Assembly: GCA_963422395.1 (NCBI GenBank)
Contig: OY729431.1
Coordinates: forward strand, 692,680-756,679
Reading direction: 5' to 3'
DNA: 64,000 nucleotides
From: Vicinamibacteria bacterium
GTDB taxonomy: Bacteria > Acidobacteriota > Vicinamibacteria > Marinacidobacterales > Marinacidobacteraceae
Shown here: positions 1-16,511 of the stretch, one piece after another
Layout: each line of letters starts with the position of its first letter
Position numbering within the stretch: the first letter of the stretch is position 1
Made by a program: the position numbers and the translations under genes
The notes under the pieces: model-generated
Database searches by the model: none
Told to the model about the DNA's origin: nothing
What the model saw: only the letters and a program-made list of their open reading frames with translations

Positions 1-903
1 CTTCCACAGAAAATTCGCGTAGGCTTCAAGAGTGCCTGTATTCTGGAGTGTCACAGATTCCACGGGAAGGCGGAAATGAGCATGGAAGAACTTTTCCAGA
101 TATTTTTTAGAATTCTGGACTCCGTACTGCATCGTTACTATCTGTTCCAATTGTTTTCTATTCGTGACCAGAACGAAGCAGATATTTTCGACATCGAAGA
201 CATGCTTCAGATTTTCCAACAGCGAGAGCGCATAGGTCGGGCGGCACCGGTCCAGCTCATCGATGATGACGACGAGTGGTCTCGGCGAATCCTTGGGGAT
301 TCCTTCCGATGCACTTTCTTTCGCTTCGGCACTCATGGCATCGGCTAGTGCGGTCAACGCCTGCCGGAATTCATCCAGCGTCTTCCTCTGCTCTTGAGCG
401 TTTTCGAGGCGCTTTTGAAATTCCGAATCCAGGTCGACAGATGGATCTCTCTTGACCTTCGACAGGCCATCGACCAGCTTTTGGCCGGTCTCCTCGGACA
501 GGATTCCTCCGGTCACAATTCGAAGTCCGAGACCTGCGAGAGATGGCAGGAGGTGTTTTCCCAGGCTCGTGACCTTCCTGAGGAAGACTTTCCTTTCTTC
601 GCCGTTAGGAGCCCGATCGAAGATCTGGCTCGCAATATCGAAGAGCGGGTCTTCCCCGTTGTCCGCGGAAAACGCATCGAAATAGACGACCGCCGAGCCT
701 CGCTTCCGAAGCAGGCCGGCCCATTGTCTGGCGAATACAGTTTTCCCCGACCCCCACTCGCCATCCAGAGCGATCACTGACGGCCCTTCAAGGGATTCGA
801 CGACGCGCGCGACGGATTCCCCGAACCTCTGGTAACCGAAGATGTCGGTTCCCTCGAACCCATCACGATCCCCGATCTCTGGGGGTTTCGGTGTCAATCG
901 CAT
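1..903 (-). CDS. KAP-family P-loop NTPase, 5' portion only (gene continues beyond window start)
   Basis: Manual minus-strand translation from ATG at 903 gives MRLTPKPPEIGDRDGF...GPSVIALDGEWGSGKTVFARQWAGLL. The G-x-WGSGKT Walker A is typical of KAP NTPases, and VVIIDELDRCRP is Walker-B-like. The ORF track omits it because there is no stop inside the window. It starts 14 bp after the stop of the HEPN-like gene on the same strand. Bases 1-400 are much AT-richer than the rest of the window. Confidence 0.6.
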   Translation of the reverse strand, partial: MRLTPKPPEIGDRDGFEGTDIFGYQRFGESVARVVESLEGPSVIALDGEWGSGKTVFARQWAGLLRKRGSAVVYFDAFSADNGEDPLFDIASQIFDRAPNGEERKVFLRKVTSLGKHLLPSLAGLGLRIVTGGILSEETGQKLVDGLSKVKRDPSVDLDSEFQKRLENAQEQRKTLDEFRQALTALADAMSAEAKESASEGIPKDSPRPLVVIIDELDRCRPTYALSLLENLKHVFDVENICFVLVTNRKQLEQIVTMQYGVQNSKKYLEKFFHAHFRLPVESVTLQNTGTLEAYANFLWK

Positions 904-916
904 GGCTTTTTCTCCT

Positions 917-1444
917 TCAGTTCGTTCTCGAAGTGGGCCTGTGCGGGTTGATTTTTGCGGTCACGCCCATGAGAGCGTGCATTTTCCGGGTGAAACGGCG
1001 TGCATCTTCGAAGTAGCTGCGAACACTGTGGACGGTGACGCGCGCCGGGCGGCCGTGCGCCAGCGCGTGCCGGTCGGTCACGATGCTGTCGATGCTGGCC
1101 GCGATCTGCCCTTCGGACAGCGTCTCGAGTTCGTCGGCGGCTCGTTGATCGAACCAGCCTACGAGACGGATCATCTCTTTCGTGCGCGGGCTGCGGAAAT
1201 ACTGTAACTGGTGGTCCACATATTTCAGGACACCGGGGGCGGACCGTGTCTTCGCGTACGCCAGCATCGTTTCTCTGCAGGATGTCTCGAGATAGGCGGA
1301 TGTCCAGATCGTCATGAGCTGCGCCAGCCAGGAAAGCTGTTCGATGGAAAGAGGAGGGCTTTTCGATGTCTCCTTCGCCGAATCCAGGGCGCCCTCGATC
1401 ATCTGCTCGAGCCGCTGACTGTCTTCCATCATGACACTTTTCAT
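917..1444 (-). CDS. HEPN-like putative RNase, partner of the adjacent DUF262 gene (MAE_28990/MAE_18760-family-like)
   Basis: 175 aa, MKSVMMEDSQRLEQMIEG.... Contains an R-x4-H motif (IVTDRHALAHGR) typical of HEPN nucleases. Its ATG at 1442-1444 overlaps the DUF262 stop at 1441-1443, forming ATGA. The 216-aa track ORF has an implausible Arg/Pro-rich N-extension. Confidence 0.45.
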   Translation of the reverse strand: MKSVMMEDSQRLEQMIEGALDSAKETSKSPPLSIEQLSWLAQLMTIWTSAYLETSCRETMLAYAKTRSAPGVLKYVDHQLQYFRSPRTKEMIRLVGWFDQRAADELETLSEGQIAASIDSIVTDRHALAHGRPARVTVHSVRSYFEDARRFTRKMHALMGVTAKINPHRPTSRTN

Positions 1445-2529
1445 AGCACGGATCGGTAAGCATCTACCGCGTGCTGGATTCGAGCTCGGACGCGGCTCTC
1501 GTCCGTCGTTCCCTCGGTATGCAGACGCTCGGTTCGCAGGATTTCGAGAAGATGGAGATGTGCACACTCTAGACCGGCACCGTCCGTGATCGGCCCGTTG
1601 TCGAGACGCTTTGCGATGCCCACGAATACTGCATCCAGCACCGCGACATTCAGTGCCTTGTCGGGCCGCAGCGCTTTCGGTCCGAGCATCTCGTCAACGG
1701 CCCGCGCGGCTCCAGAAAACCTCTCCAAGAATTCTCTGATTTTCGTCTCTTCCGGTTTTCGGTGCTTCTCCATGAATCTGTCGAGAAATCTCTTCATCGG
1801 CCGTCGATAGGACTCGAGCGAGTAGTAGAGTGCTAGGAACCGAAGGATGATCTCCTCTTCCTTTCTTCTCTTGTTCCTGGGTCCGTAGAGGTTCCGCCAA
1901 TGGCCGTCGCCGGCGAGCTCCGAGAGAAGACGACGGAGCGGCCCCTGGTACACACAGTCCCGGATTTCCTGAGGCGTGAGAGGGGTTCCCGCGGTATTCA
2001 GGCGCTCGAAGACGATGCGCATGGAACTCCGGTCTCCGCTCGGTTCGTCCTGCTGGAATATCGTCGCGTGTACAACGGCGTCGTCGAGATGGCGGCGATC
2101 CGGCCCTTCGAGCGTCTCATATGTCTTGTCCTGTAAATCCGAGGATACTCCGACGAGCGAGAACTCTCGATCCTCGAGGAGTCCCAAGTGGAACGCCTGC
2201 AGGGTACGGAGTCGCTGCTGGCCATCGACGACGATGAGTTTGTTGTTCTCCGGATCCCTGAAGAGAAAGATTTCCGGAACCGGAATGCCGAGGATCAGGG
2301 ATTCGATGAAGCGCGACGACTGTGCTCTCGACCAGACGAATCCTCGCTGGAATTCCGGGATGACGATGTCCTCACGATTCAACCGGCTCACGATCCCGTC
2401 CACCGGCATGTCTGCACCGTAGCTGGTCACTGCGTAGCGAATCGGTTCTCCCACGGGATCGTCTTCGATGGACGAACTGTCGATCACCCCGAGTTCCTTT
2501 TCGTTTTCCTGCATTTCGATTCTCCTCAT
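1441..2529 (-). CDS. DUF262 (ParB-like/GmrSD N-terminal nuclease domain) protein
   Basis: 362 aa with the DUF262 signature block IPEFQRGFVW...FLFRDPENNKLIVVDGQQRLRTL. Start may be the internal Met (MQENEKEL, 2514) instead of 2529. Confidence 0.7.
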   Translation of the reverse strand: MRRIEMQENEKELGVIDSSSIEDDPVGEPIRYAVTSYGADMPVDGIVSRLNREDIVIPEFQRGFVWSRAQSSRFIESLILGIPVPEIFLFRDPENNKLIVVDGQQRLRTLQAFHLGLLEDREFSLVGVSSDLQDKTYETLEGPDRRHLDDAVVHATIFQQDEPSGDRSSMRIVFERLNTAGTPLTPQEIRDCVYQGPLRRLLSELAGDGHWRNLYGPRNKRRKEEEIILRFLALYYSLESYRRPMKRFLDRFMEKHRKPEETKIREFLERFSGAARAVDEMLGPKALRPDKALNVAVLDAVFVGIAKRLDNGPITDGAGLECAHLHLLEILRTERLHTEGTTDESRVRARIQHAVDAYRSVL

Positions 2530-2619
2530 GTTCTCGATGTGGGCTCTGTGGACCAGGGTCTCGAATTCTGAAGCCTTTTCGGGATCTTCGATCGATTTTT
2601 CCGCATTCCGGGAGCGCGG

Positions 2620-4530
2620 CTAATCGCTGTGTTTCTCTGGTCGGAGACCCATATCGGCGAGGAATCGAGACGGCTTTTTCGGCCGCCCGTAATAGGACCG
2701 GGCTCGGGTGAGGGTGAGCGTCTCGCTGGCGCGGGTCATCCCCACGAAACAGACGCGGCGCTCTTCTTCGATCCGAGGATCGGCTTCGCCGTTCGCTTTC
2801 GCGAAGTATGAGGGCAGCTGGTCCTCGGCGAGCCCCAGCAGATAGACATGCTCGAAGGTCTTCCCCTTCGCCTGGTGGATGGTGAGACACTGCACCTCCT
2901 CCCGCTTCGGCTCCGGCACGATGGGGCGCAGGTCGAGTTCGTGGAGGAACTGTTCGAGCCTCATCGAGTCTCCGCCCTGCCGGTGGATCTTCGCCGCGAT
3001 CTGACGCCAGACATCGCTTTCCTCATTCGCTTCGGTTCGTTCCGCCGGGTCCGTCGCGCGCGCTATATCGGAAGCCATGATTTCAAGCGCCTGACGGCTG
3101 AATCTCCGGTGATCCGGGCACAGCACGAGATGTTCCCGTGCGGCGGCGATCAGCGCCTTCGCGGGAGCAGCGTTGGACTCTTCCGCGGCTTTCGCCACGA
3201 ATGCGGCGAGCAGTGCACCGTTTTCGACATCCGCCCGCGATTCGGCGGATGCCGGCGAAACCTCCACTCCCCCGAGTTCGGAGAACGCCTTGACGAGGAG
3301 CCGCAGCTGCGCCCCGTCGCCCGGCGTGTTCGCCAGTCGAAGTGCGGCGAGCAGGAATCGGATGCCCGGAGACACGAACTCGTCTCTGGGTCTCCGGCGC
3401 CAGGCGGGGACGCCGGCCGTCCGCAACGCTTCGTACGCGGCTTCCACGAGCCTGCCGTTGCGCGCCAGAACGGCGATCTCGCCCGACGCGATCTGTCGAT
3501 CACGAAGATCCCGGCTCACCCACGACACTTCCTCGGCTTCGGTGGGAAAGCATCGAAGCCGGACGGATTCGGTCTCTGAGCGGTGACCGGCGGCGACGAT
3601 CGGAGGTTTCTCGGCCGTCTCGTTCGGACCCGCCTCCATGAGCCGATTCGCCCGCTCGACGACGGCCGGCGGGCAGCGAAAGCTCTCCGGCAGGTGGAGC
3701 ACGGCCATCCGGTAGTCGGTCTGGAGATCAGCGATCCGCTCCGGGCTCGCGCCGTTCCACTGGAAGATCATCTGGTCGTCGTCCGCGACGATGAACAGTT
3801 CGCTGCTGCCGGGCGGCCAGAGCGTTCGGAGCAGCCGATCCTGAATCGCGTTCGTATCCTGATACTCGTCCACGAGGACATGCGGATAGGCAATCGGAAA
3901 GTCCGCAGCGATCCGCGGCTCGCTATCGATCAGGCGAAAGCAGCACCAGAGCAGCGATCCATAGTCCATGCAGTTCTTCTGTATGAGCCGGGCGACATAC
4001 TCGTCGAGCAGTTCTCGCTTCCATCCGCTCGCTGCGCCCGGACCCGGAGCGAACGCGGACCGGGCGGCTGGGTCTGCGCGGAACAGGGCGTCCAGGTTGC
4101 GTGCGATTCGTTCGGCGGGCGGCGGCTGGCTTCCCCACGGGGCGCTGGGCCCGAGGGCGTCGGCCAGCACCACCGCGCGATCCGCATTCAGCGTCAGGAT
4201 GCGAAAGTCTGGGCGCAACCCGAGGTGGCTCCCGTGCTGCCGTAGTACACCGGCACAAAGCGAATGAAAAGTAGCAATCCGAACCCGATCCGAATCCCGA
4301 CCCAGCCGAATCGCCACCCGCTGTTTCATCTCGCTAGCGGCGAAGTTCGTGAAAGTCATCCCGAGCACGCGAAACCGTCTCTTCGGGGTGGCCTGGATGA
4401 TGCGAACGGCCCGTTCGGCGAGGACTTCCGTCTTGCCGGCTCCGGGCCCGGCGAGAACCAGGAGCGGCCCTCCCTCCCACGCGACGGCCCGACTTTGTGC
4501 CTCGCTGAGGACGACTTCGGAAGTGCTCAT
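2620..4530 (-). CDS. gajB: UvrD/Rep-family SF1 helicase, Gabija GajB-like
   Basis: Real start is MSTSEVVLSEAQSRAVAWEGGPLLVLAGPGAGKTEVLAERA. This carries Walker A of UvrD helicases, and TFHSLC is a motif-III-like element. The upstream 112 aa of the 748-aa track ORF are low-complexity. ATG at 4528-4530 overlaps the stop of the upstream OLD-family gene (ATGA). Confidence 0.7.
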   Translation of the reverse strand: MSTSEVVLSEAQSRAVAWEGGPLLVLAGPGAGKTEVLAERAVRIIQATPKRRFRVLGMTFTNFAASEMKQRVAIRLGRDSDRVRIATFHSLCAGVLRQHGSHLGLRPDFRILTLNADRAVVLADALGPSAPWGSQPPPAERIARNLDALFRADPAARSAFAPGPGAASGWKRELLDEYVARLIQKNCMDYGSLLWCCFRLIDSEPRIAADFPIAYPHVLVDEYQDTNAIQDRLLRTLWPPGSSELFIVADDDQMIFQWNGASPERIADLQTDYRMAVLHLPESFRCPPAVVERANRLMEAGPNETAEKPPIVAAGHRSETESVRLRCFPTEAEEVSWVSRDLRDRQIASGEIAVLARNGRLVEAAYEALRTAGVPAWRRRPRDEFVSPGIRFLLAALRLANTPGDGAQLRLLVKAFSELGGVEVSPASAESRADVENGALLAAFVAKAAEESNAAPAKALIAAAREHLVLCPDHRRFSRQALEIMASDIARATDPAERTEANEESDVWRQIAAKIHRQGGDSMRLEQFLHELDLRPIVPEPKREEVQCLTIHQAKGKTFEHVYLLGLAEDQLPSYFAKANGEADPRIEEERRVCFVGMTRASETLTLTRARSYYGRPKKPSRFLADMGLRPEKHSD

Positions 4531-6248
4531 GCCGCTGCCAGGGAGACCGTCTTCTCGAGGATGCGTTTCAATGCTTCGGGAACGGTTGCGGGTTCCTCGA
4601 GCATTCTTTTCGTAGCTCGCGTCGCAGTGGTGACCTTGTTGAAGTCTTTCTTGTTGTAGAGATCGTCGAAACCGTTCTCCTTGAGGAATTCCTCGATGTT
4701 CGGATATGGGCAGAGGTATCTGTCCTCTTCCGCCGCGCCTTCCAGATTCTCCATGGCGGCCCTTTCGTATTTGTTCCGCCCCTTGTCGCCATCGTAAACG
4801 AGATACCAGGGGATGCCGAACTGGTTGGCGATGCGGATCAGCGAAGCCAGATTGATATCGCTGCATTGCATATGGGCGATGCCGTGCCGGTCGAGGTCGA
4901 TCCCGAGTGCTTCGGCGACTCCGGAGAACAGTACTGCCTCGGTTTCCCCCTCGTACACCAGCCAGCAGCGGGCGAAGAGAAGGTCTCCGCGGCCGCGGCG
5001 GATCTTGCGCTGGAAGGTCTGACGATTCTTCTCGTCCAGGGATCCCAGCTCGGCGCGGTAGGTGCGTACGGCGCTGTCCCGATAGACGAGTCGCCGTACC
5101 GATTCGGGGTCGAGTCCGCAGAGCAAATCGCCGCTGTGCGTCGAAAGGATCTTCTGTCCGGGGAAGCGCTGCACGGCGTCCAGAAGCAGCCGAACCGCCG
5201 CCGGATGGAGGTGGGCCTCCGGTTCTTCCAGGATCGTGATCGGGACGACTGCATCGCCTCCCTCGCCGAGTCGACGCCGCAGGTACGCGTCGAAGAGGAG
5301 CAGTACCGCAAGGCTCTGCGCGCCCTCTCCCTGTCGGTCGAGAGGGATCTTCGCTCCCTGCCGGGAGGCCATGTTCACCCGCGCCTGCGACAGCAGCATC
5401 GACGCCCGCGCCGGAAGGGCATCCACCGTGACCGGGTCGCCGGCCCCGAACACGATCACTTCCTGGGCGCGTTTCAGGTGGTCCCGCACCTCGCTCAGCG
5501 GCGGGTGCGCTTCGATCAGTCTCTGATTCAGCTCTCCGAGCTCCTTCTCGAAGTCCTCGCGGTCCGCCTGGGAAAGATCTTTGGCAGCCAGGAATTCGCG
5601 CCAGAACGGGCCGCGCGACGCAAAGTGTTTCCCGGCGTCTCGAAGCGCCGATAGAAAGTGCACCGGCGCGGTCCGGCGAAGGGCGGCCATGTGCACTGCC
5701 GCGGCTGGCTTCATGGGGTTTTCCGCATCATCGAGGAACACGCCTTCCGTGATGAACTCCGTTCGATCTGCGTCGTAGGCCGAAGTCACCTGCAGAGTCG
5801 TTTCCCGCCTGCCGTCCTCCCGTAGCACGAGGACATCGGCGAGCTCCTCCCGAAGCTCGACGGGCAGGGTGTCCGGTGCGGTCTCGCCGAGCCGCAACTC
5901 GATCTCGATGGGATTCGCCTTCTCCGCCGACGCTGCCTCATCCACCAGGTGGTAGTCGTATTCCTCGAACACGCGGCTGCTCGGACCTCGCAACCGGTCG
6001 AGACATAGTTCGATCGCTTTCAGGACGGCCGTCTTGCCGGAGTTGTTCTCGCCGATCAGGACGGTCGTCTCCCCCAGGTCCAGTGTCAACTCTTTGATAC
6101 ACCGAAAGTTCCGGATTCGCACGCTCGTGAGTCGAAAGCCCGGTCCGGCGGTTTCTGGAGTGCGGCCCTCTCTTCGAGAAGCGTTCTGCTCCGTTGCCGA
6201 GTACGCAGCGGAGCCCCCGCGGTCGGCGGGTTCGTCCAGGGTTTCCAT
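4527..6248 (-). CDS. gajA: OLD-family ATP-dependent endonuclease (ABC ATPase plus C-terminal Toprim), Gabija GajA-like / class 2 OLD
   Basis: From METLDEP...RLTSVRIRNFRCIKELTLDLGETTVLIGENNSGKTAVLKAIELCL (Walker A). ILEEPEAHLHPAAVRLL is Walker B/D-loop. C-terminal Toprim: LVYEGETEAVLF ... WYLVYDGDKGRN. The 967-aa track ORF has a spurious ~390-aa Arg/Pro/Gly N-extension. Start 20 bp downstream of the helicase stop at 6269. Confidence 0.7.
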   Translation of the reverse strand: METLDEPADRGGSAAYSATEQNASRREGRTPETAGPGFRLTSVRIRNFRCIKELTLDLGETTVLIGENNSGKTAVLKAIELCLDRLRGPSSRVFEEYDYHLVDEAASAEKANPIEIELRLGETAPDTLPVELREELADVLVLREDGRRETTLQVTSAYDADRTEFITEGVFLDDAENPMKPAAAVHMAALRRTAPVHFLSALRDAGKHFASRGPFWREFLAAKDLSQADREDFEKELGELNQRLIEAHPPLSEVRDHLKRAQEVIVFGAGDPVTVDALPARASMLLSQARVNMASRQGAKIPLDRQGEGAQSLAVLLLFDAYLRRRLGEGGDAVVPITILEEPEAHLHPAAVRLLLDAVQRFPGQKILSTHSGDLLCGLDPESVRRLVYRDSAVRTYRAELGSLDEKNRQTFQRKIRRGRGDLLFARCWLVYEGETEAVLFSGVAEALGIDLDRHGIAHMQCSDINLASLIRIANQFGIPWYLVYDGDKGRNKYERAAMENLEGAAEEDRYLCPYPNIEEFLKENGFDDLYNKKDFNKVTTATRATKRMLEEPATVPEALKRILEKTVSLAAA

Positions 6249-6268
6249 GGTGTGATGCTCCTCGGGTC

Positions 6269-9200
6269 TCACGGGTCGGGTTCCGCGGCTTCCCGGAGGG
6301 CGCCGGCGGAGAGGGAGAACGCCTCGGAGGAATGGTGCGAGGTGAGCAGGCGAAAGGGGTTCTGGATCCGCTTCAGCTCGGGTCTCGGACGGCCGCAGTC
6401 GAACACCACATACAGCCAGTAGGCCTCGCCGAAGTGGCACGCCTGCTTCCACTCGTTCGGCTCGATCGAGACGCCGCCGCGCCCCGCCCGGCCCTTGACC
6501 TCGATGCGCCGCTGCTCTCCGTCGGGGCGGATCGAGAGGAGATCGAACCCGGGCCAGTCGGCGAGCCCGGCAGCCCGCGCCTTCTCGGGCTTCGAAACGT
6601 CTTGCAAGCGGCCGTGGTGTGCCCGCTCCCACTCCGAGGCGATGCGAACTGCCATCGCCTCCACGGTCTCGTCGTAGCCTTCGAGTTCGTCGGAATCGGG
6701 GGCGGGGATGACGAGTGCGTGGGCCAGCAGCAGGACCTCGCCGGGATGGATCCGGTCCGGCGCCTCCCGAAGATTTTGGAGTTCGCTCGTCCGCCGGGAA
6801 GCGAGCGCCGCCTGCTCTTCGCGCACCTCCCGCATCGCCTCCTCGTCGGGCGCTGCCCGATCGGAAGACTGGTTGGAAAGCCGATCGGGAAGCCGATCGC
6901 GCAGGCGTTTGCGCTGTTCGGCGAGCTCCGCAGCGCGCAGATCGAATCCGGCGGTCAGCTGCCGGCGCCGCTCCTCGCTGCTCCGGCGGGCTCTTGCGCG
7001 ATGTTCCCCGACCAGCCGTTCGGCGATCTCCTGTGCCTGGGCGGCGGCTTCGGCGCGCCTTCCGAGAGAGCGGCTCGCCAGCGGGATCGCCCCCGGCACC
7101 GCATTCGGCGCACCGTGGAGCAACAGCATCCGTTCGACCGGTTCTTCGATGAGCATTCCGTCTTCTTCCTGGCGGAGTCCGATCAGCCGGCGTTCGATGA
7201 TCCGGCGCGCCGGAGAGGGCACACGAAGACTGCCGTGGGGGAGGAGTGCCGGTGGAGCCGCTGCCGGCGGCGGAACCTCCGCTTCGACGCCAACGAGGCC
7301 CAGGTGGAAGAAGTACGGCCCGTCGGCGCGGGGGTCGGCGAAGATCGCGCCGCGCTGGGCATCCCGGGAGAAGAGGTTTCGGACGGCTTCGGAAAGCGCG
7401 TCGAAGACCGGCTCTCCGGGATGGAGCCATACCCCGGGTTTTCCCGGTGCGATCCGTCTCGCCGAGAGCAGCTCCCGATCTTCCGGGGCGAGGGTGTCGA
7501 GTGCCGGGAGGAGGGGGTCGAGCGCCCCCGCTCGCCCGGGCAGCAGCGTGAAGAACCCGTCGAGGTCCCCGCTGATGGTCAAACCCAGGAGCGGTGCGCT
7601 CCTTTCGACGAACCGGAGCACATACGCAGGGAGAAGGCGCAGGGATTCCTCGCGATCCCGTTCGCGGTTCAGCCGGGTGAGACGGGCGGCGACTTCTCCT
7701 GGCTTTTCGGGTCCATCGCCGTAGCGCCGGGTCTCCTCGTCTCGGATTTTGCGCACCCGTTCGCTGCGGAGCGCATCCTTCAGTTCTGCCAGATCGGCCC
7801 GCTCGGCGTCGGTCTTCTCTTCACCGCCTTCCCAAAGTGTCGAGCGCAGGTATTTCTTCAGCGAGCGGCCCTCGAACAGCCGGCCGATGACATCGAAGAC
7901 CTTGTCCGATTCGAGCTCTTCCCGGATGGCGTCGAGTTTTTCCAGCAGCACGGCCAGCACCCGCCCCTCGCGGGTGTCTTTCGAGATGAGGTTGACGATG
8001 CGGACCTCGTGCTTTTGTCCGTAGCGGTGGATGCGTCCCATTCGCTGCTCGAGTCGGGCCGGGTTCCAGGGGATGTCGTAGTTCACCATCAGCCGACAGA
8101 ACTGGAGGTTGATCCCTTCGCCGGCGGCGTCGGTCGCGATCAGGAACCGGGCTCCGGCGGGATCGCGGAACCGCTCGACCTGTTCCTCGCGTTCGGGCCA
8201 GTCCATGCCGCCGTGGATCTCGGCCACCTGCCCCGAGTAACCGAGCCCTTCGAGCCGCCGGATCAGGGAATCCACGGTGTCTCGGTGCTCGCTGAAGATC
8301 AGCCACTTCTCCCGGGGCTCGACTTCGGCGCCGCCCTCGAGAACTTCGCGTAGCCGTTGGAACTTGGACTCCTGCCCGGACTCGTGGAGACGCCGCGCCC
8401 GGTCGCGCAGGCCTTCGAGCACGCCGATTTCGCGCTGGACTTCCTCTTCGGTCACCACTGCGAGCGCGCCGAGCATCTCGTCTTCCCAGGTTTCGATCTC
8501 CTCCCGATCTCGATTCGTGGGGCTTCCCGCGTCGTCATCGGCAGCCCGGATCTCGAAGAGATCGCCCTTGGCTGCCTTTCGGTCCAGTAGCAGTGTCTCG
8601 GGCTCGATCCCATCGCTCCGGATGTCCTGGACGACCTGCCGGAGTTTTTCGATGCGGCGTTCGAACGACCGCAACAGCGCCCAGGTGGAGCTGGCGAGTC
8701 GGCGCTGGAAGACGGTCAGGGCCAGCTCGACCGCCGGCCGGTTCTTCAGTCGGTTCGTCAGCGCCCGGCCGTAGAACTCGTGGAGATATTCGGTCGTCCT
8801 CTCGTAGAGGTCGCGCTCGCCGTCCGGGCCTTCGCTCAGCTGGTAGCTGAAGGTGTTGCAGCGGCGCGGCAGGAAGAGGGGTGCGCCGTCGAAGCCCACC
8901 AGCTCTTCCTTCGTCCGGCGGAGAAAGTGGCGGCGGCGCACGGCCGGCGACAGCCTCGTCACTGCCGCACCCGTCGAGAACGATTGCGGATCGAGCAGCC
9001 GCCAGAGAAAGTGGTAGGGCCGCTCCCGACCCATGTGCGGGGTGGCGGTGAGCAGCAGGAGGTGCCGGGCCGACCAGCCGAGCCCCGAGAACGGGCCGCT
9101 CGGCGCGGCGCCCCCGGAAAGCGCCTCGGCGAGCTGGTAGCGCTTCGTCTTGTCCACCCGGTCCCCTTCTCCGCCGACGCTCAGCTTGTGCGCCTCGTCG

Positions 9201-9919
9201 AAGACCACCAGGTCGTAGGGAGCGACCTCGGGGTCGCCGAGCTCCTGAAAAGTTCGCTCCTGCCGCAGGGTGTCCAGCGACACGATCTGCTGGTCTTCGA
9301 GAAACGGATTCCCGGATTCCGTCCGCCTGCGCCCAAGGATTCCGAACTGCAAGTGGAAGAGGGTCCGCAGCTCGCGCTCCCAGTTCCCGACGAGCCCGGC
9401 CGGGGGCACGATGAGCACCCTTCGGATGCGACGGCGCGAGAGAAGCTCACGCACCAGGAGGCCGGTCATGATCGTTTTGCCGGCTCCGGCGTCGTCAGCG
9501 AGCAGGAACCGCAGCGGGTCCTGCGCCAGCATCCTTTCGTATACCGCGATCCGCTGGTGCGGCAATGGATCGATCCGTGCCGTCTCGATGGCGAAGGCGG
9601 GGTTGAACTCGTGGCCGTGAGCGAGGCAAAGCGCTTCGGTGAATGCGGAAACGCCGCGCGGATCCCCGGCGAAGTCCAGCGGGGGAGGGCCGGGTTCCAC
9701 CGGAGGCGCGGGGCTGGAGGCGGCGACCGCGGCTTCGAGCTCGGCGAGCCGGCGAAGCGAGCCCGGTTGCGGTGCTGCTTTTCCTGCCTCCCAGCGGTGG
9801 ATGGTGATCAGGGTTACCCCGAGTTCCTCGGCGAGCCGGCCCTGGCTGAAACCGAGAGCTCGCCGGACCTCGTGCACCCTCCCGCCGAAGTCGTCACCGT
9901 CGGAGCTCGCGGAAGGCAT
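6269..9919 (-). CDS. Multidomain SNF2/SF2 helicase with N-terminal XRE-type HTH and C-terminal DUF3883-like (restriction-endonuclease-fold) domain
   Basis: 1216 aa. N-terminal HTH: [29 protein letters not shown]. SNF2 helicase motifs: [21 protein letters not shown], a HELICc block ([13 protein letters not shown]...[23 protein letters not shown]). C-terminal ...[47 protein letters not shown] matches DUF3883. Preceded by an AT-rich promoter region. Confidence 0.7.
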   Translation of the reverse strand: [1216 protein letters not shown]

Positions 9920-10209
9920 GGCAGCGGTCAGTATAGCACAGGTAACATGAGGCTTATAAAGATATTTATCATTTGATAAAAATCATGAAAAAGAAGCAAC
10001 GGATGCCGTGTCGCGGCGGCGGTGGAAGGGGCTAGAGCGTCTGCCGTCCCGCCGCGTCCACAGGCTGGTCCGGAGCGGCTCGCCGTGATCCACCTCCTGT
10101 TGGGTCGACATCGAACCGCACGGCTCGCCGTGACGCACCGCCCCCGCCGAGAATACGCCTTCCACTGCGGTGCGGCGCTTCCTCGCGGATGTGCTACGTT
10201 GTGCGTCGT
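9920..10209. promoter_or_regulatory. Divergent intergenic region with sharply AT-rich core (approx 9940-10010); likely promoters for the minus-strand defence operon and plus-strand toxin-antitoxin genes
   Basis: Sequence ggtaacatgaggcttataaagatatttatcatttgataaaaatcatgaaaaagaagc is less than 30% GC in a ~70% GC context. It is flanked by the start of the 6-gene minus-strand cluster and the start of the Phd/YefM gene. Confidence 0.35.
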
Positions 10210-10503
10210 ATGTCGCGAAGTGCTGCCCGGACCCGGCGGGTCGGCGTCCGGGAGTTGCGGCAGAACCTGAGCGTCTATCTGCGCCGGATCCATGACGGCG
10301 AACGGTTCGAAGTGACGGACCGGGGTGTCCCGGTGGCCCTGCTGACCCCACTGGGCGAGAACCTCTCTCCCCTCGAACGACTGATCGCCGAGGGAAGGGT
10401 GAAGCGGCCGGTCGGGAAGCTGTCAGATCTCCCGCCGCCCGCCGGAGAGCCGACCACTACGGGGAGCGGCGCCCTCCTGACCGGCCGCGAAGACCGCTTC
10501 TGA
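10210..10503 (+). CDS. Type II antitoxin, Phd/YefM family
   Basis: MSRSAARTRRVGVRELRQNLSVYLRRIHDGERFEVTDRGVPVALLTP is the classic Phd/YefM N-terminal fold. Immediately upstream of a PIN-domain gene. Confidence 0.7.
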   Translation: MSRSAARTRRVGVRELRQNLSVYLRRIHDGERFEVTDRGVPVALLTPLGENLSPLERLIAEGRVKRPVGKLSDLPPPAGEPTTTGSGALLTGREDRF

Positions 10504-10537
10504 ACCGGCTGCCGACCGCTTCTTCGCGCGTTCTCTC

Positions 10538-10927
10538 ATGGTTTATGTGGATTCGTCGGCGCTCGTGAAGCTCCTGGTCTCCGAGCCGGAGTCGCGGGCG
10601 CTTCGGGAGTACTTGATCGGCCGCGAGGAACTCGTGTCGAGCGCCCTGGCGGAAGTCGAGCTGCTTCGCGCCCTGAGCCGGATCGACGGTTCGGAGGAGA
10701 TCCGCCGCCGCGCTCGCCTCCTGCTGGACGGTCTGGCGCTCCTTCCGCTCGACTCGACCGTTCTGAAGGAAGCGGCGAGCTTCCCGGTGCCCGGCCTGCG
10801 TACGCTCGACGCGCTCCACCTCGCGGCGGCGCTTTCGCTAGCCGATCTCGATGCCTTCGTCACCTACGACCGGCGGCTCGCCGAGGCTGCCGCCGCCGCG
10901 GGCCTGCCCGTGGCGTCCCCGGGGTGA
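10538..10927 (+). CDS. vapC: PIN-domain toxin VapC
   Basis: MVYVDSSALVKLLVSEPES...ALAEVELLRAL...TLDALHLAAAL...FVTYDRRL shows the PIN acidic residues. 35 bp after the antitoxin. Confidence 0.75.
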   Translation: MVYVDSSALVKLLVSEPESRALREYLIGREELVSSALAEVELLRALSRIDGSEEIRRRARLLLDGLALLPLDSTVLKEAASFPVPGLRTLDALHLAAALSLADLDAFVTYDRRLAEAAAAAGLPVASPG

Positions 10928-11042
10928 CCGACCTCCCGGTGCTTCTGGTGCGGATCCCCGAGAGCGGCTCCGACTCCGAGGATGACGGTGGGTTCGTTCT
11001 TCCAAATGGACCATGGTCTCAGACCATATTAAGGTGGAGGTC

Positions 11043-11390
11043 ATGCAGGAAATTCGTATCTCGAAGTTCAAGGCGACCTGTCTCGAGGTCCTCGACCGGG
11101 TAGCGACGAGCGGCCGCCCGGTGTTGGTGACCCGGTTCGGCAGGCCGATCGCCCGGATCGTTCCGCCGCCGCCTGTTCCGCGGGCCGGATGGTTCGGCGC
11201 CATGAAGGGCACGGGCAGGATGAACGACGACCTGATCGCCCCGGCTGCCGACCCGGCGGAATGGGAAGGGCGGCAGACTCGCTCGACTTTCTGCGAACCG
11301 CGGCGGCGGGCATCGAGAGAGGCCGAAGCCGAAGCGGACGGAACCCGGGAGAGAGGCGAGAGACGCTCCCGCCGGCGGGTGCCGGAATAG
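11043..11390 (+). CDS. Second Phd/YefM-family antitoxin, apparently orphan (no toxin gene follows)
   Basis: MQEIRISKFKATCLEVLDRVATSGRPVLVTRFGRPIARIVPPPP...DDLIAPAADPAEWEGRQ. The C-terminal Arg/Glu-rich tail to 11390 may be read-through. True stop uncertain. Confidence 0.5.
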   Translation: MQEIRISKFKATCLEVLDRVATSGRPVLVTRFGRPIARIVPPPPVPRAGWFGAMKGTGRMNDDLIAPAADPAEWEGRQTRSTFCEPRRRASREAEAEADGTRERGERRSRRRVPE

Positions 11391-11445
11391 ACTCACCGAG
11401 AACCTCGCCCCTGAGAACCTCGCTCCTGACGGTCGGAGGGCTTGC

Positions 11446-13971
11446 GTGTCCCGGTTCTCGAAAGCCCTGCTCGAAAAATCCGATCCCCGAAGCTCTGGTC
11501 TCGGAGGCTCTCTTCGGGTCTCCGGCTGGCTGTTCGGTCGGTGCCTCGGTCGGTTGTCCGGCCGGTCGGCTGGCTGGTCGGCTGCCGCGGCGGTCGCGGG
11601 CACCGCGGCGAGCTTCGGGGCGGGTGCCGCCTTCGCGCAGGCCGCCGAGGCAGAACCAACTATAGAAAGGGTGGAGGACTCCTCGGTTTCCGCTTCGAGG
11701 CGGCGAAATTCCGAGGGGGATGCAGTTTCCGCCGACCGGGGTTCGGGGCGGCTCGCCGAGGGACAGCCGGCGCCCCTGAGCCCGGCCCTGACCGGGCGGA
11801 TCCTCGGCCCCCCCGCTCCGGCGGCGAACGAGGCGATCCGCCGGGCGGGCGACGGGGGCGTCACCCTGCGCGCCTTCCGGCTCGCCGAGCCGCTCACCGT
11901 GGATGGAGCCCTCGACGACCCGGTGTACGAGCAGGTTCCCGGGGCGGAAGGCTTCTTGCAGCAGGAGCCCGACGAAGGGGCGCCCGTTTCGGAGTCCACC
12001 CGCGTCTGGGTGTTCTACGACACGGGCAGCCTCTACATCGCCGCCCATCTGGAAGAGAACCATCCGGCCGAGTTCATGACCAACGAGATGCGCCGCGACC
12101 AGCGGAACATCGGCTGGGGCGACAGCTTCTCCGTAGTCCTCGACCCGTTCTACGACCGCCGGAACGGTTTCCTGTTCCACACGAACGCGCTGGGCGCCCT
12201 CTACGACGCCCAGATAACCGACGAGCGGAACACCAACAGCGACTGGAACACCGTGTGGTGGGTGAAGACCGAGCGCCTACAGGACGCCTGGACCGTAGAG
12301 ATGCGGATCCCCTTCCGTTCGCTGCGCTACGCCGCGGGCGGACCCCAGCTCTGGGGGATCAACTTCCGCCGGCTCATCAAGCACGCGAACGAACGGGCGT
12401 TCCTCACTCCCACTCCCCAGGCGTATAGCCGGGACGGACTGATCCGGCTCTCCAACGCGGCGACCCTCGTCGGCCTCGAAGCGCCGGCAGGATCGAGGCG
12501 GATGGAGCTGAAGCCGTATCTGATCGGGTCTCAGAGCCACGTTCCCCTGAACGACGTTTGGAACGAATGGTCCGGCGATCTCGGCGCCGACTTCAAGTTC
12601 GGAGTCACCGACGGACTGACAGCCGATGTCACCTGGAACACCGACTTCGCGCAGGTGGAGGACGACGAGACCCAGATCAACCTGAGCCGTTTCAGCCTGT
12701 TCTACCCGGAAAAGCGCGAGTTCTTCCTCGAAGGGCAGGGAGTCTTCGACTTCGGCGGCCGCGAAACCCGATTCTTCGGAGGGGCGACGGACGTCCCCAT
12801 CCCGTTCTTCAGCCGCTCCATCGGAATCGAGGACGGCGACGCGGTGCCGATTCTCGGCGGCGCGCGGCTCCACGGCCGCGCCGGCGCCTACCAACTGGGA
12901 CTCCTGAACATCCAGACCGGCGGCGTGTCCGCACTCGATGCGGCGAGCACGAACTTCAGCGCCTTCCGGGTGAAGCGGGATCTCTTCTCCCGGTCCAACA
13001 TCGGGGTCATCGTCACCCACCGGAACCTGAGCGCCGGCGGCGCCGGAGCGAACTCGCTCTACGGAGTGGACGGGAACTTCAACCCGACCGAGAACATCCG
13101 GATCAACACCTTCTACATGGGGACCCGCGAGCCCGGCGTCGAAAGCGGGCACCGGGCCGCCAGCTACTTCGGCCAATTCCGCTACGACACCGACCTGATC
13201 GATCTCACCGCCGAGCGTCTCTATCTGGGCGAGGACTTCGACCCGGGCATGGGCTTCGTGCGCCGCCGGGACTTCACGAAGAACGGGGGCAGCCTCCAGT
13301 TCTCCCCGCGCCCCCGGAGCATCAAAGCGGTCCGGCAGTTCGAGTTCGAGGCAGAGGCCAGCAACTACGACCGCCCCGACGGCGAGCTGGAGACGCGCGA
13401 GTACCAGTTCGGCGCCCGAGCCGTCTTCGAGAGCAGCGACCGCCTCATGTTCGACCACACCGTGACCGAAGAGCGGCTCCTCGATGGTTTCGACCTCTCG
13501 GACACGGTCGGGGTTCCCGCCGGGAACTATCGGTTCTCCCGCACCGGGGTACGGGTGCGGATGGGATCCCACCGCGCGCTCTCGGGAATGTTTCGCTACG
13601 AGTTCGGAGACTTCTTCGGCGGCTCCCGCCGGGAAGTGAGTTACTGGGGGCGGGCCGAGGTGAACCAGCGCTTCTCGCTCGAGCCCAACATCAGTTTCAA
13701 CTGGATCGAGGTGCCGGAGGGCGAAGTGGAGGCGCAGGTGAGCCGCCTGCGCGCGACCTGGACCGTCTCGCCCCGCAGCTTCGCGGGCGTGCTCGTCCAG
13801 TACAATTCGGCGGCTCGATCGATTTCGGCGAACGTCCGCTTTCGCTGGGAGTACTCCCCGGGCAGCGATCTGTTCGTGGTCTTCAGCACGAACCGCAATG
13901 GGGACGACGGACTCTCCGGGCTCAGCGACCGGACGCTCGTGGTGAAGTTCACTCGGTTGTTCCGGTTCTGA
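11446..13971 (+). CDS. DUF5916 / CBM9-like domain outer-membrane protein, paralog 1 of 3
   Basis: N-terminal CBM9-like block LRAFRLAEPLTVDGALDDPVYEQVPG...VWVFYDTGSLYIAAHLEE...DSFSVVLDPFYDRRNGFLFHTNALGALYDAQ. Middle DVTWNTDFAQVEDDETQINLSRFSLFYPEKREFFLEG. C-terminal VVKFTRLFRF is the beta-barrel OMP C-terminal Phe. GTG start at 11446 is doubtful. A TTG near 11551 gives a cleaner signal peptide (SGRSAGWSAAAAVAGTAASFGAGAAFAQA). Confidence 0.65.
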   Translation: MSRFSKALLEKSDPRSSGLGGSLRVSGWLFGRCLGRLSGRSAGWSAAAAVAGTAASFGAGAAFAQAAEAEPTIERVEDSSVSASRRRNSEGDAVSADRGSGRLAEGQPAPLSPALTGRILGPPAPAANEAIRRAGDGGVTLRAFRLAEPLTVDGALDDPVYEQVPGAEGFLQQEPDEGAPVSESTRVWVFYDTGSLYIAAHLEENHPAEFMTNEMRRDQRNIGWGDSFSVVLDPFYDRRNGFLFHTNALGALYDAQITDERNTNSDWNTVWWVKTERLQDAWTVEMRIPFRSLRYAAGGPQLWGINFRRLIKHANERAFLTPTPQAYSRDGLIRLSNAATLVGLEAPAGSRRMELKPYLIGSQSHVPLNDVWNEWSGDLGADFKFGVTDGLTADVTWNTDFAQVEDDETQINLSRFSLFYPEKREFFLEGQGVFDFGGRETRFFGGATDVPIPFFSRSIGIEDGDAVPILGGARLHGRAGAYQLGLLNIQTGGVSALDAASTNFSAFRVKRDLFSRSNIGVIVTHRNLSAGGAGANSLYGVDGNFNPTENIRINTFYMGTREPGVESGHRAASYFGQFRYDTDLIDLTAERLYLGEDFDPGMGFVRRRDFTKNGGSLQFSPRPRSIKAVRQFEFEAEASNYDRPDGELETREYQFGARAVFESSDRLMFDHTVTEERLLDGFDLSDTVGVPAGNYRFSRTGVRVRMGSHRALSGMFRYEFGDFFGGSRREVSYWGRAEVNQRFSLEPNISFNWIEVPEGEVEAQVSRLRATWTVSPRSFAGVLVQYNSAARSISANVRFRWEYSPGSDLFVVFSTNRNGDDGLSGLSDRTLVVKFTRLFRF

Positions 13972-14069
13972 CACGAACGCGGGAGCCCGGCGCCAACTGA
14001 CGCCAAAGCTAGACTGAGCGAGCGTCTTCGACCGCCCAATCCGGGAACCGGGTTCCCAGGTGCCGCCTC

Positions 14070-16511
14070 TTGCCGACTCCCCGTTTCGTGTGGCGGGGCG
14101 TTGCCGCAGTTTGGTTTTCGGGCCTGTTGGCCGGTGCCGCGCCCGCTCCGTCAGGACCCGCTCCGCCGCCCGATGACCGCCGGGACCGACGAATCCAGGG
14201 ACGAATCCAGGACGGACAACAGGACGGACGAGACGAGCAGGGCGGCCACGACCGCCGGGGCGGCTCTTCGTTCGGCCTGCGCGGGGCGGGCAGGCTCGCG
14301 GACCGTCAGCAGGATCCCGGTGCGGCGATGGCCGGCCGTATCCTCGGTCCACCGGCGCCCGTGGCCGGCGAGTCGGTCCGCCGCGGCGCCGGCGGGCGGG
14401 TGACGCTCCGCGCCTTCCGCTTGGCTGAGCCCCTCACCGTGGACGGGGTGCTCGACGATCCGGTGTACGACCAGGCGCCGGCGGCGGACGGATTCGTGCA
14501 GCAGGAGCCCGACGAGGGCGCGCCGGCCTCGGAGTCCACCCGCGTCTGGGTGTTCTACGACGCGGACAGCCTCTACATCGCCGCCGAGCTGGAAGAATTG
14601 CATCCGGGGCGGCTAATGGCCAGAGAGATGCGCCGCGACCACCGGAGCATCGGCTGGAACGACAGCTTCCAGGTCATCCTCGACACCTTCTACGACCGCC
14701 GGAACGGTTTCCTGTTCCATACGAACGCGCTGGGGGCGCTCTACGACGCGCAGGTGACCGACGAACGGAACACCAACAGCGACTGGAACACGGTCTGGTG
14801 GGTCGAGACCGCAACCGGGGAACGGGGCTGGACGGCGGAGATCCGCATCCCCTTCCGCTCACTGCGCTACGCCGCCGGCGGACCCCAGCTCTGGGGGATC
14901 AACTTCCAGCGGAACATCAAGCACCGGAACGAAAAGGTGTTCTTCACCCCCACGCCGCAGGCCTACAACCGGGAGGCGCTGATCCGCCTGTCCAATGCCG
15001 CGACGCTCGTGGGTCTCGAAGCGCCCTCCGGGTCCCGGCGGATGGAGCTGAAGCCGTACCTGATCGGTTCGCAGCAGCACGCTCCCCTGAACGGCGTCGC
15101 GAACGAATGGTCCGGCGACCTCGGCGCCGACTTCAAGTTCGGGGTCACCGACGGGCTGACCGCCGATGTCACCTGGAACACCGACTTCGCGCAGGTGGAA
15201 GACGACGAGACCCAGATCAACCTGAGCCGTTTCAGCCTGTTCTTCCCGGAAAAGCGCGAGTTCTTCCTCGAAGGGCAGGGGGTCTTCGACTTCGGCGGCC
15301 GCCAGACCCGCGCCTTCGGCGGTCCGACGGACGTTCCCATCCCCTTCTTCAGCCGCTCGATCGGCATCTCGGACAGCTCTGTAGTGCCGATTCTCGGCGG
15401 CGCGCGGCTCCACGGCCGCGCCGGCGCCTACCAACTGGGGCTCCTGAACATCCAGGCCGGCGACGTCCCCGGACTCGATGCGGCGAGCACGAACTTCAGC
15501 GCCTTTCGGGTGAAACGCGACCTCTTCGCCCGGTCCAGCATCGGAGTGATCGCCACGCACCGCAACGTCGGCGCCGACGGATCGGGCTCCAACTCCCTCT
15601 ATGGCGCCGACGGGAACTTCAACCCGACCGAGAACATCCGGATCAACACCTTCTACATGGGGACCCGCGAGTCCGGCGTCGAAACCGGACACCGGGCCGC
15701 CAGCTATCTGGGCCAGTTCCGCTACGACACCGACCTGATCGACCTCACCGCCGAGCGTCTCTATCTGGGCGAGGACTTCGACCCGGGCATGGGCTTCGTG
15801 CGCCGCCGGGATTTCACGAAGAACGGAGGCAGCCTCCAGTTCTCCCCGCGTCCCCGGGGGATCGAACGGATCCGGCAGTTCGAGTTCAAGGCGGAGGCGA
15901 ACGACTACCGGCGCCCCGACGGCGGACTCGAAACGCGGGAGTACTCGTTCGAGGGACGCGCCATCTTCGAGAGCAGCGACCGTTTCGTGGTGGACCACAG
16001 CGTGACCGAAGAGCGGCTGCTGGACGGTTTCGACCTCTCGGACACGGTCGGAGTGCCCGCCGGGAACTACCGTTTCGCCCGCACCGGCGTCCGTTTCTGG
16101 ATGGGAACGCACCGCGCGGTCTCCGGATACTTCCGCTACGAGTTCGGGGACTTCTTCGGCGGCTCTCGCCGGGAGGTGAGCTACTGGGGGCGCGCCGAGG
16201 TGAACCGCCGCTTCTCCATGGAGCCGAATATCAGCCTCAACTGGATCGAGGTGCCGGAGGGAGAACTCCGGGCGCAGGTCAGCCGGCTGCGCGCGACCTG
16301 GACGGTCTCTCCGCGCAGCTTCGTGGGAGCACTCCTCCAATACAACTCGGCGGCGCAGCTCTTCTCTGCCAACGTCCGTTTCCGCTGGGAGTACTCGCCG
16401 GGCAGCGATGTGTTCATGGTCTTCAGCACGAACCGCGACGGCGGCGACGGGCTCTCCGGACTCACCGACCGGGCGCTGGTCGTCAAGTTCACCCGGCTGT
16501 TCCGGTTCTGA
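14070..16511 (+). CDS. DUF5916 / CBM9-like domain outer-membrane protein, paralog 2 of 3
   Basis: About 85% identical to paralog 1 over the conserved domains. Same motifs and the LFRF C-terminus. TTG start with signal-like VAAVWFSGLLAGAAPAP. This is followed by a low-complexity linker DRRDRRIQGRIQDGQQDGRDEQ encoded by short tandem repeats. Confidence 0.65.
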   Translation: MPTPRFVWRGVAAVWFSGLLAGAAPAPSGPAPPPDDRRDRRIQGRIQDGQQDGRDEQGGHDRRGGSSFGLRGAGRLADRQQDPGAAMAGRILGPPAPVAGESVRRGAGGRVTLRAFRLAEPLTVDGVLDDPVYDQAPAADGFVQQEPDEGAPASESTRVWVFYDADSLYIAAELEELHPGRLMAREMRRDHRSIGWNDSFQVILDTFYDRRNGFLFHTNALGALYDAQVTDERNTNSDWNTVWWVETATGERGWTAEIRIPFRSLRYAAGGPQLWGINFQRNIKHRNEKVFFTPTPQAYNREALIRLSNAATLVGLEAPSGSRRMELKPYLIGSQQHAPLNGVANEWSGDLGADFKFGVTDGLTADVTWNTDFAQVEDDETQINLSRFSLFFPEKREFFLEGQGVFDFGGRQTRAFGGPTDVPIPFFSRSIGISDSSVVPILGGARLHGRAGAYQLGLLNIQAGDVPGLDAASTNFSAFRVKRDLFARSSIGVIATHRNVGADGSGSNSLYGADGNFNPTENIRINTFYMGTRESGVETGHRAASYLGQFRYDTDLIDLTAERLYLGEDFDPGMGFVRRRDFTKNGGSLQFSPRPRGIERIRQFEFKAEANDYRRPDGGLETREYSFEGRAIFESSDRFVVDHSVTEERLLDGFDLSDTVGVPAGNYRFARTGVRFWMGTHRAVSGYFRYEFGDFFGGSRREVSYWGRAEVNRRFSMEPNISLNWIEVPEGELRAQVSRLRATWTVSPRSFVGALLQYNSAAQLFSANVRFRWEYSPGSDVFMVFSTNRDGGDGLSGLTDRALVVKFTRLFRF
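14160..14260 (+). repeat. Short tandem/low-complexity repeats (gacgaatccagg x2, acggac/acgagc units) in the N-terminal linker of DUF5916 paralog 2
   Basis: gaccgacgaatccagggacgaatccaggacggacaacaggacggacgagacgagcagg, read directly. Encodes DRRIQGRIQDGQQDGRDEQ. Confidence 0.6.

Follow-up and report, generated by a model that had tools for sequence, protein, structure and literature searches.

A stretch of 64,000 nt from the genome of a Vicinamibacteria bacterium (Acidobacteriota; assembly GCA_963422395.1, contig OY729431.1, positions 692,680 to 756,679 of the forward strand), hereafter the window, carries near its beginning a two-gene unit on the minus strand, in which a gene for a DUF262 protein is followed by a gene for a small HEPN protein. 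Both open reading frames (ORFs) were confirmed by reading the sequence. In its longest form the DUF262 ORF extends from an ATG at 2529 to a TGA at 1441 and encodes 362 amino acids (aa). An AGGAGA sequence, however, is located at 2526-2521, i.e. directly after this ATG and 6 nt ahead of another ATG, at 2514, and gene calls on two related contigs give a protein of 357 aa. Because of these gene calls and the spacing of the AGGAGA, position 2514 is the likelier start, which places the gene at 1441-2514. As for the HEPN gene, the mechanically derived ORF begins with a GTG at 1567, and the alignment of homologues favours an ATG at 1444, resulting in a gene at 917-1444 with the stop codon at 917-919 and a product of 175 aa. 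The two genes share the ATGA at 1441-1444, composed of the DUF262 stop (TGA, 1443-1441) and the HEPN start (ATG, 1444-1442). The next gene upstream, gajB, has its stop codon at 2620-2622, 105 nt before the ATG at 2514. A scan of window positions 1-3000 reported zero promoter-like sites, and terminator-like sites occurred there at chance level.

According to Pfam, the large protein contains the GmrSD_N domain (PF03235, E = 2.9e-27), which is the only domain reported for it. Two PADLOC models cover most of its length as well: NsnA (E = 1.6e-60, model positions 38-376 of 385) and PD-T4-2_A (PDLC04027, E = 5.5e-50, model positions 54-361 of 363). By this coverage the protein also has the C-terminal helical domain designated ParBDB by Li et al. 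(PMC12065111). The three DUF262 motifs defined in the same study (QRxxxW, DGxQR, and FxxxN) are all intact in the window and are kept in 21-22 of the 22 partner proteins from other loci. Motif I, QRGFVW, is encoded at 2332-2349 (Q in 21, R and W in all 22 partner proteins); motif II, DGQQR, which is the predicted centre of nucleoside triphosphate (NTP) binding, at 2212-2226 (D, G, the second Q, and R in 22, the first Q in 21); and motif III, FERLN, at 1996-2010 (F in 22, N in 21). The Pfam search returned no DUF1524 match in either protein and no other nuclease domain in the large one, and no NCBIfam model fits either protein of the pair. In GmrSD, BrxU, and SspE the DUF262 domain acts as an NTPase-driven DNA sensor, and cleavage is the work of a fused DUF1524 HNH domain (PMC12065111, PMC10952713). 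A preliminary description of the locus, made from the letters alone, was right in naming a DUF262 gene, whereas its wording of a "nuclease domain" is doubtful, since the current literature assigns to DUF262 an NTPase and sensor role (PMC12065111).

For the small protein, the best family assignment is HEPN_RiboL-PSP (PF18735, E = 2.4e-6). A word-indexed search for its homologues yielded just 4 relatives, and an exhaustive search with a hidden Markov model (HMM) built from the alignment of those relatives reported 924 representative clusters at E ≤ 0.001, of which 371 reach E ≤ 1e-10. The proteins of this family are, with few exceptions, 150-160 aa long. In a set of 131 aligned relatives (mean column identity of 31%), PF18735 is matched by 129 with the best E-value of 2.8e-23, followed by PF18737 (MAE_28990-like), which is matched by 73 with the best value of 4.7e-9 and is always weaker than the family's PF18735 best. 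ApeA- and Swt1-like HEPN models are matched by smaller numbers of relatives, and the window protein itself has no PF18737 match at E ≤ 0.1. The profiles therefore place the protein in the RiboL-PSP branch and not primarily in the MAE_28990 one, an assignment that is robust at the family level. Apart from the secondary PF18737 matches, the MAE_28990/MAE_18760 type is similar to the window in that a DUF1156 methylase is often found nearby. The preliminary description had suggested an HMM match to DUF262 and to the MAE_28990/MAE_18760 HEPN family as a check; the former was obtained, and for the latter a HEPN match was obtained as well, only to the other family.

The residues DRHALAHG occupy positions 124-131 of the 175-aa protein, and the R-x4-H motif within them (R125-H-A-L-A-H130) is encoded at 1055-1072. 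Taken alone, this motif is not beyond chance, since R-x4-H arises in 43% of residue shuffles of the protein. Its conservation is more informative: H130 and G131 are invariant in all 131 relatives, position 125 holds R in 120 and K in 11, and position 126 holds H or N in 127. Moreover, position 53 (codon at 1286-1288), which lies in a long early helix (residues 34-67 of the predicted model), is E in 129 relatives and Q in 2, and F98, S120, and A129 are kept in at least 90% of them. Judged by this conservation the motif is real, and the family consensus, R-[HN]-x-x-A-H-G, is a typical HEPN catalytic motif. An AlphaFold2 model computed on the 131-sequence alignment is all-alpha, with a mean predicted local distance difference test score (pLDDT) of 92.2 and a predicted template modelling score of 0.87; an earlier prediction from 5 sequences had a pLDDT of only 55.6 and was discarded. 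The PDB entries with the highest fold-match probability to the model are HEPN proteins (2hsb with 0.89, 4nqf, and 7ae9), all of them at E > 0.3.

To estimate how stable the pair is, genomes were scanned, one per species, with a 12-sequence alignment of the HEPN protein. The resulting 22 loci, which were selected by peptide pattern and represent a small sample, span Acidobacteriota, Alpha- and Gammaproteobacteria, Candidatus Binatia, Gemmatimonadota, Spirochaetia, and other groups. The HEPN relatives encoded there show 35-48% identity. In 21 of the 22 loci a DUF262 homologue (E from 1e-108 to 1e-139) is encoded directly upstream on the same strand, the exception being L007:1774-2262, where a HEPN homologue has no DUF262 gene upstream. 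The DUF262 partner is the better conserved of the two, with 51-59% identity in the 22 genome loci. The 4-bp NTGA overlap is present in 19 of 23 junctions, a number that includes two metagenomic contigs, and 2 more junctions have a 1-bp overlap. Genes located 3' of the pair vary considerably and encode DUF1156 methylases, HATPase_c_4, DUF1302, and AAA_22 ATPase proteins, transposase fragments, and proteins without a Pfam match; no conserved third component was found among the genes downstream of the pair in the related loci.

These results support all the central points that the preliminary description had made on the two genes. The coupled expression that it deduced from the ATGA overlap agrees with the recurrence of this overlap across phyla. 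A coincidental R-x4-H with no HEPN profile behind it, one of the two outcomes named there as fatal, is contradicted by the PF18735 match and by the invariant histidine, and the other, i.e. the absence of homologues next to DUF262 genes, by the adjacency in 21 of 22 loci.

Several loci contain additional copies. In L019:4830-9485 the DUF262-HEPN pair occurs twice in tandem, and the DUF262 protein of the second copy is only 37% identical to that of the window. Broken or duplicated copies of the pair are present in L024:2071-6312, and a second HEPN-like ORF is found about 2 kb downstream in L005 (8384-9007).

The described architecture is not new, a point that the preliminary description did not recognise. 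In Table 1 of the 2013 HEPN survey, the Ribo L-PSP-HEPN family is listed with the remark "operon with ParB" (Anantharaman et al., PMC3710099). The window pair has the same PF18735 family, the conserved R-x4-H, and an operon partner from the ParB superfamily, to which DUF262 belongs; unlike the proteins that gave the family its name, its HEPN protein carries no endoribonuclease L-PSP fusion. The closest system with a known phenotype is PD-T4-2 from E. coli ECOR65, which was described as "DUF262, HEPN" with two ORFs and a length of 1540 bp (Vassallo et al. 2022, PMC9519451). HHpred reported PF18735 (97.8%) and PF18737 (96.9%) for its second protein, PD-T4-2B, and deletion of the system in native ECOR65 restores T4 plaquing, while the system also protects when cloned alone (PMC9519451). 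Both PD-T4-2 and the window pair, which is 1613 bp long, consist of a DUF262 gene without DUF1524 followed by a gene for a RiboL-PSP-type HEPN protein (about 165 aa in PD-T4-2). The window host, in contrast, is an environmental bacterium with high G+C content, the window pair resides in a defence island flanked by Hma (helicase-methylase-ATPase) genes, and the anti-phage phenotype is known from ECOR65 alone.

DUF262-HEPN pairs are also annotated on IncX1 plasmids of E. coli and Salmonella and on a 3.9-kb E. coli plasmid; the loci compared here are those of the E. coli IncX1 plasmid p94EC-4 (L025, 2501-4141) and of E. coli pLR-27_3 (L026, 52-1755). On the IncX1 plasmids the DUF262 gene shares an overlap with the final part of the gene for replication initiation, and the 3.9-kb plasmid consists of little beyond the pair. 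The plasmid DUF262 proteins are about 32% identical to that of the window. According to hhalign, the HEPN family profile matches the plasmid HEPN proteins at 98.9% (E = 2e-17) and 94.1%, and the protein with the value of 98.9% also matches PD-T4-2_B (E = 4.4e-4).

Based on the domains, the motifs, and the layout of the pair, it most probably represents a PD-T4-2-type two-gene anti-phage defence module, in which a ParB-like DUF262 NTPase is translationally coupled to a RiboL-PSP HEPN protein; we estimate the probability of this reading at roughly 0.75. The locus is accordingly filed as one that shares its architecture with PD-T4-2 and is predicted to work like it, the B profile being unmatched and the likeness to the ECOR65 B protein being drawn through the Pfam families published for it with HHpred. 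By analogy with GmrSD, BrxU, and SspE, as well as with dimeric R-x4-H HEPN ribonucleases (RNases), the DUF262 protein would be the sensor and the HEPN protein the killer, and the two would form a complex. The DUF262-ParBDB protein would bind DNA and recognise a feature of the invading phage DNA. The predicted NTP-binding site, DGQQR, would serve as the switch, with binding or hydrolysis of NTP releasing or activating the co-translated HEPN protein. The latter may dimerise, as other HEPN enzymes do, and thus build its R-x4-H active site, whereupon it would cut RNA and phage production would stop, possibly with abortive infection as the outcome.

Several results weigh against this reading. The PF18735 score of the small protein is 28.0 bits, which is 0.4 below the Pfam gathering score of 28.4. 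A Foldseek search with the HEPN model gave no significant match in PDB and BFVD, and no solved structure is detectable for the small protein by single-sequence or profile search. None of the three PADLOC PD-T4-2_B models matches the window HEPN protein at E ≤ 0.1, and only 10 of the 131 relatives match them, weakly (best E-value of 6.4e-5). The large protein, in turn, scores higher on NsnA of the Menshen system than on PD-T4-2_A. About half of the related loci lie inside Hma operons, so that the independence of the pair can only be presumed for this clade. Finally, the literature search found no mechanistic study of PD-T4-2, and the assignment of sensor and effector roles is therefore one of analogy. 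As for the model scores, the HEPN-partnered DUF262 proteins of the E. coli plasmids likewise score higher on NsnA than on PD-T4-2_A, and the PD-T4-2_B models miss or barely detect the plasmid HEPN proteins too. The PD-T4-2_B models are narrow, to judge from the proteins compared here.

Among the other known systems, Menshen had to be considered because its NsnA model gives the best PADLOC match. Menshen consists of NsnA, followed by the ABC-ATPase NsnB (AAA_15 and DUF3696) and the effector NsnC (Millman 2022; Li et al. 2025, PMC12065111). The large window protein resembles NsnA in having DUF262 and ParBDB; NsnC, however, is an inPIN-toxin protein, and the genes that follow in the window encode the 175-aa HEPN protein and then a KAP NTPase. 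With NsnB and NsnC absent next to the gene, Menshen was rejected. GmrSD, BrxU, and SspE share with the window protein the QRxxxW, DGxQR, and FxxxN motifs followed by a helical DNA-binding domain, which is the middle one in those systems. In contrast to them, the window pair lacks the fused DUF1524 HNH, and a separate HEPN RNase would be its killing module, the predicted target of which is RNA rather than DNA. The absence of DUF1524 from both proteins excludes a GmrSD-type restriction system.

The first 10 kb of the window form a defence island on the minus strand. In the direction of transcription it begins with a gene for an HmaA-like SNF2 helicase with helix-turn-helix, SNF2, and NOV_C nuclease domains (9919-6269, PADLOC HmaA 1e-163), followed by gajA (6248-4527, PADLOC 7.7e-154) and gajB (4530-2620, PADLOC 2.6e-186). 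The last two overlap by ATGA, and these genes, spanning 2620-6248 upstream of the pair, make up what by its PADLOC matches is a complete Gabija system. Downstream of the pair, a gene for a KAP-family P-loop NTPase begins 13 nt past the HEPN stop with its own AGGAGA and extends from 903 to position 1, where it runs off the window edge; it matches Pfam KAP_NTPase (1.8e-35), the PADLOC candidate PDC-S20 (1.8e-59), and phrog_8614 (6e-76), and is probably outside the unit. The G+C content is 0.57 over the pair, ranges from 0.57 to 0.64-0.67 across the island, and is approximately 0.70 in the rest of the window. The lower value over the pair is consistent with acquired island DNA.

The sequence beyond the window edge is represented by the contig L002, which is 94.5% DNA-identical to window positions 62-3660. 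There the KAP NTPase (2759-4123) has 454 aa. The subsequent stretch, 4420-12745, encodes first a Menshen-type trio composed of a DUF262 protein (362 aa), an AAA_15+DUF3696 protein (387 aa), and a protein of 269 aa, and then a DUF1156 methylase of 1097 aa and a further protein of 1096 aa. The interval from hmaA to hmaB thus appears to house Gabija, KAP, Menshen, and the DUF262-HEPN pair all together, two paralogous systems with DUF262 being neighbours.

Of the 23 independent loci, just two have Gabija together with the pair, namely the window, counted as one with its near-identical relative L002 (where the end of GajB is preserved), and L001. In the latter (8916-14358, compared with window positions 978-6138) the Gabija and pair blocks are each 73-75% DNA-identical to those of the window, and their order is swapped. 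Given this rarity and the reversed order, a functional link between the pair and Gabija was rejected, in agreement with the preliminary description, which had treated the two as separate. Between the blocks in L001 there is an ORF for a 96-aa HEPN-like fragment (10539-10829, E = 2e-15), possibly a recombination scar. The KAP gene directly follows the pair in 2 of 23 loci, namely in the window lineage and in the distant L017. Since it recurs so seldom and other downstream genes are heterogeneous, KAP was rejected as a conserved third component. Because the association with Gabija and KAP is rare and the downstream genes are heterogeneous, the pair, with its adjacency and NTGA overlap, is by these comparisons a module of its own.

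The association with Hma is more frequent and suggests the strongest competing explanation. An HmaA homologue lies at most 6 kb upstream of the pair in 11 of 23 loci (the window, L001, L005, L009, L012, L013, L016, L017, L019, L020, and L023); in 8 of them it is the immediate neighbour. Approximately 8 loci have a DUF1156 methylase gene on the 3' side of the pair, and in L013 the start of that gene overlaps with the HEPN stop. Besides, DUF499-centred BREX-related systems carry standalone HEPN "backup effectors" (PMC12839542). The pair could accordingly be an accessory of such an Hma/DUF499-centred system, i.e. a backup RNase with its own DNA sensor that depends on HmaA, the DUF1156 methylase, or the DUF499 ATPase. 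We consider this explanation unlikely: about half of the loci have no HmaA or DUF1156 within 6 kb, the pairs on the IncX1 and 3.9-kb plasmids have no Hma genes, and cloned PD-T4-2 gives protection by itself (PMC9519451). The hmaABC operon is moreover a hotspot for inserted unrelated defence systems, e.g. Septu, PARIS, and GmrSD (PMC11232893), and Gabija, KAP, and the Menshen-type trio share the same gap. A more specific version is restricted to this clade, in which the pair would supply dedicated fourth and fifth components of the Hma/DUF499-centred BREX-related system, between the SNF2-nuclease helicase and the DUF1156 methylase. The DUF262 protein would then read the state of Hma methylation or engagement and fire the HEPN protein as a suicide backup when primary restriction fails. 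The KAP NTPase, found right after the pair in two distant loci, might on this view be an optional extra partner. This version is speculative, with a small chance of being correct.

Two further explanations concern the division of labour between the proteins. Both could be effectors, in which case DUF262 would be a ParB-like DNase, nicking or cutting DNA, and HEPN would cut RNA, with no sensing by one on behalf of the other. The 2013 survey does name the partner "ParB nuclease" (PMC3710099), DNA nicking is known for members of the ParB/Srx superfamily (cited in PMC12839542), and all DUF262 motifs are intact here. In the studied DUF262 proteins, however, cleavage belongs to the fused DUF1524 HNH, while DUF262 hydrolyses NTPs and senses DNA (PMC12065111, PMC10952713), and the window protein has neither DUF1524 nor another nuclease domain, which makes a dual nuclease quite improbable. 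Lower still is the probability of an arrangement of the toxin-antitoxin kind, where HEPN would be a constitutively active toxin and DUF262, as in HEPN-MNT, its antitoxin, acting through binding or through a nucleotide-dependent modification. The pair would then mainly serve for addiction or to stabilise the island, and not to sense phages. This arrangement is consistent with the tight translational coupling, in which the gene for the putative neutraliser comes first, with the pairs found on small and conjugative plasmids beside replication genes, and with the fact that HEPN toxins are well known in toxin-antitoxin systems (PMC3710099). HEPN-MNT and other systems of this kind likewise combine a small R-x4-H HEPN with a tightly coupled two-gene operon; their partner, however, is a minimal nucleotidyltransferase instead of a ParB-like NTPase, and the HEPN family is a different one. 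A 357-aa NTPase with three motifs and a DNA-binding domain is also far larger and more conserved than typical antitoxins, its identity among the genome loci exceeds that of HEPN, the HEPN homologue in L007 exists without DUF262 upstream, and protection against phage has been demonstrated for the E. coli system (PMC9519451).

Under the preferred reading as a PD-T4-2-type module, the pair is a divergent example of an already described and experimentally validated type of defence system, real but ordinary, and it leaves the current understanding unchanged. It adds an environmental bacterium to the DUF262 and RiboL-PSP HEPN type. The conserved NTGA coupling, residues E53, S120, R125, H130, and G131 of the HEPN protein, and DGQQR of its partner are ready targets for mutagenesis. 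Since the current PADLOC models fail to detect the HEPN partner, whose family comprises more than 900 representative clusters, censuses of defence systems probably count too few of these pairs. That the pair is repeatedly located between hmaA and hmaB also provides a small extra data point for the notion of Hma/BREX-related operons collecting auxiliary effectors.

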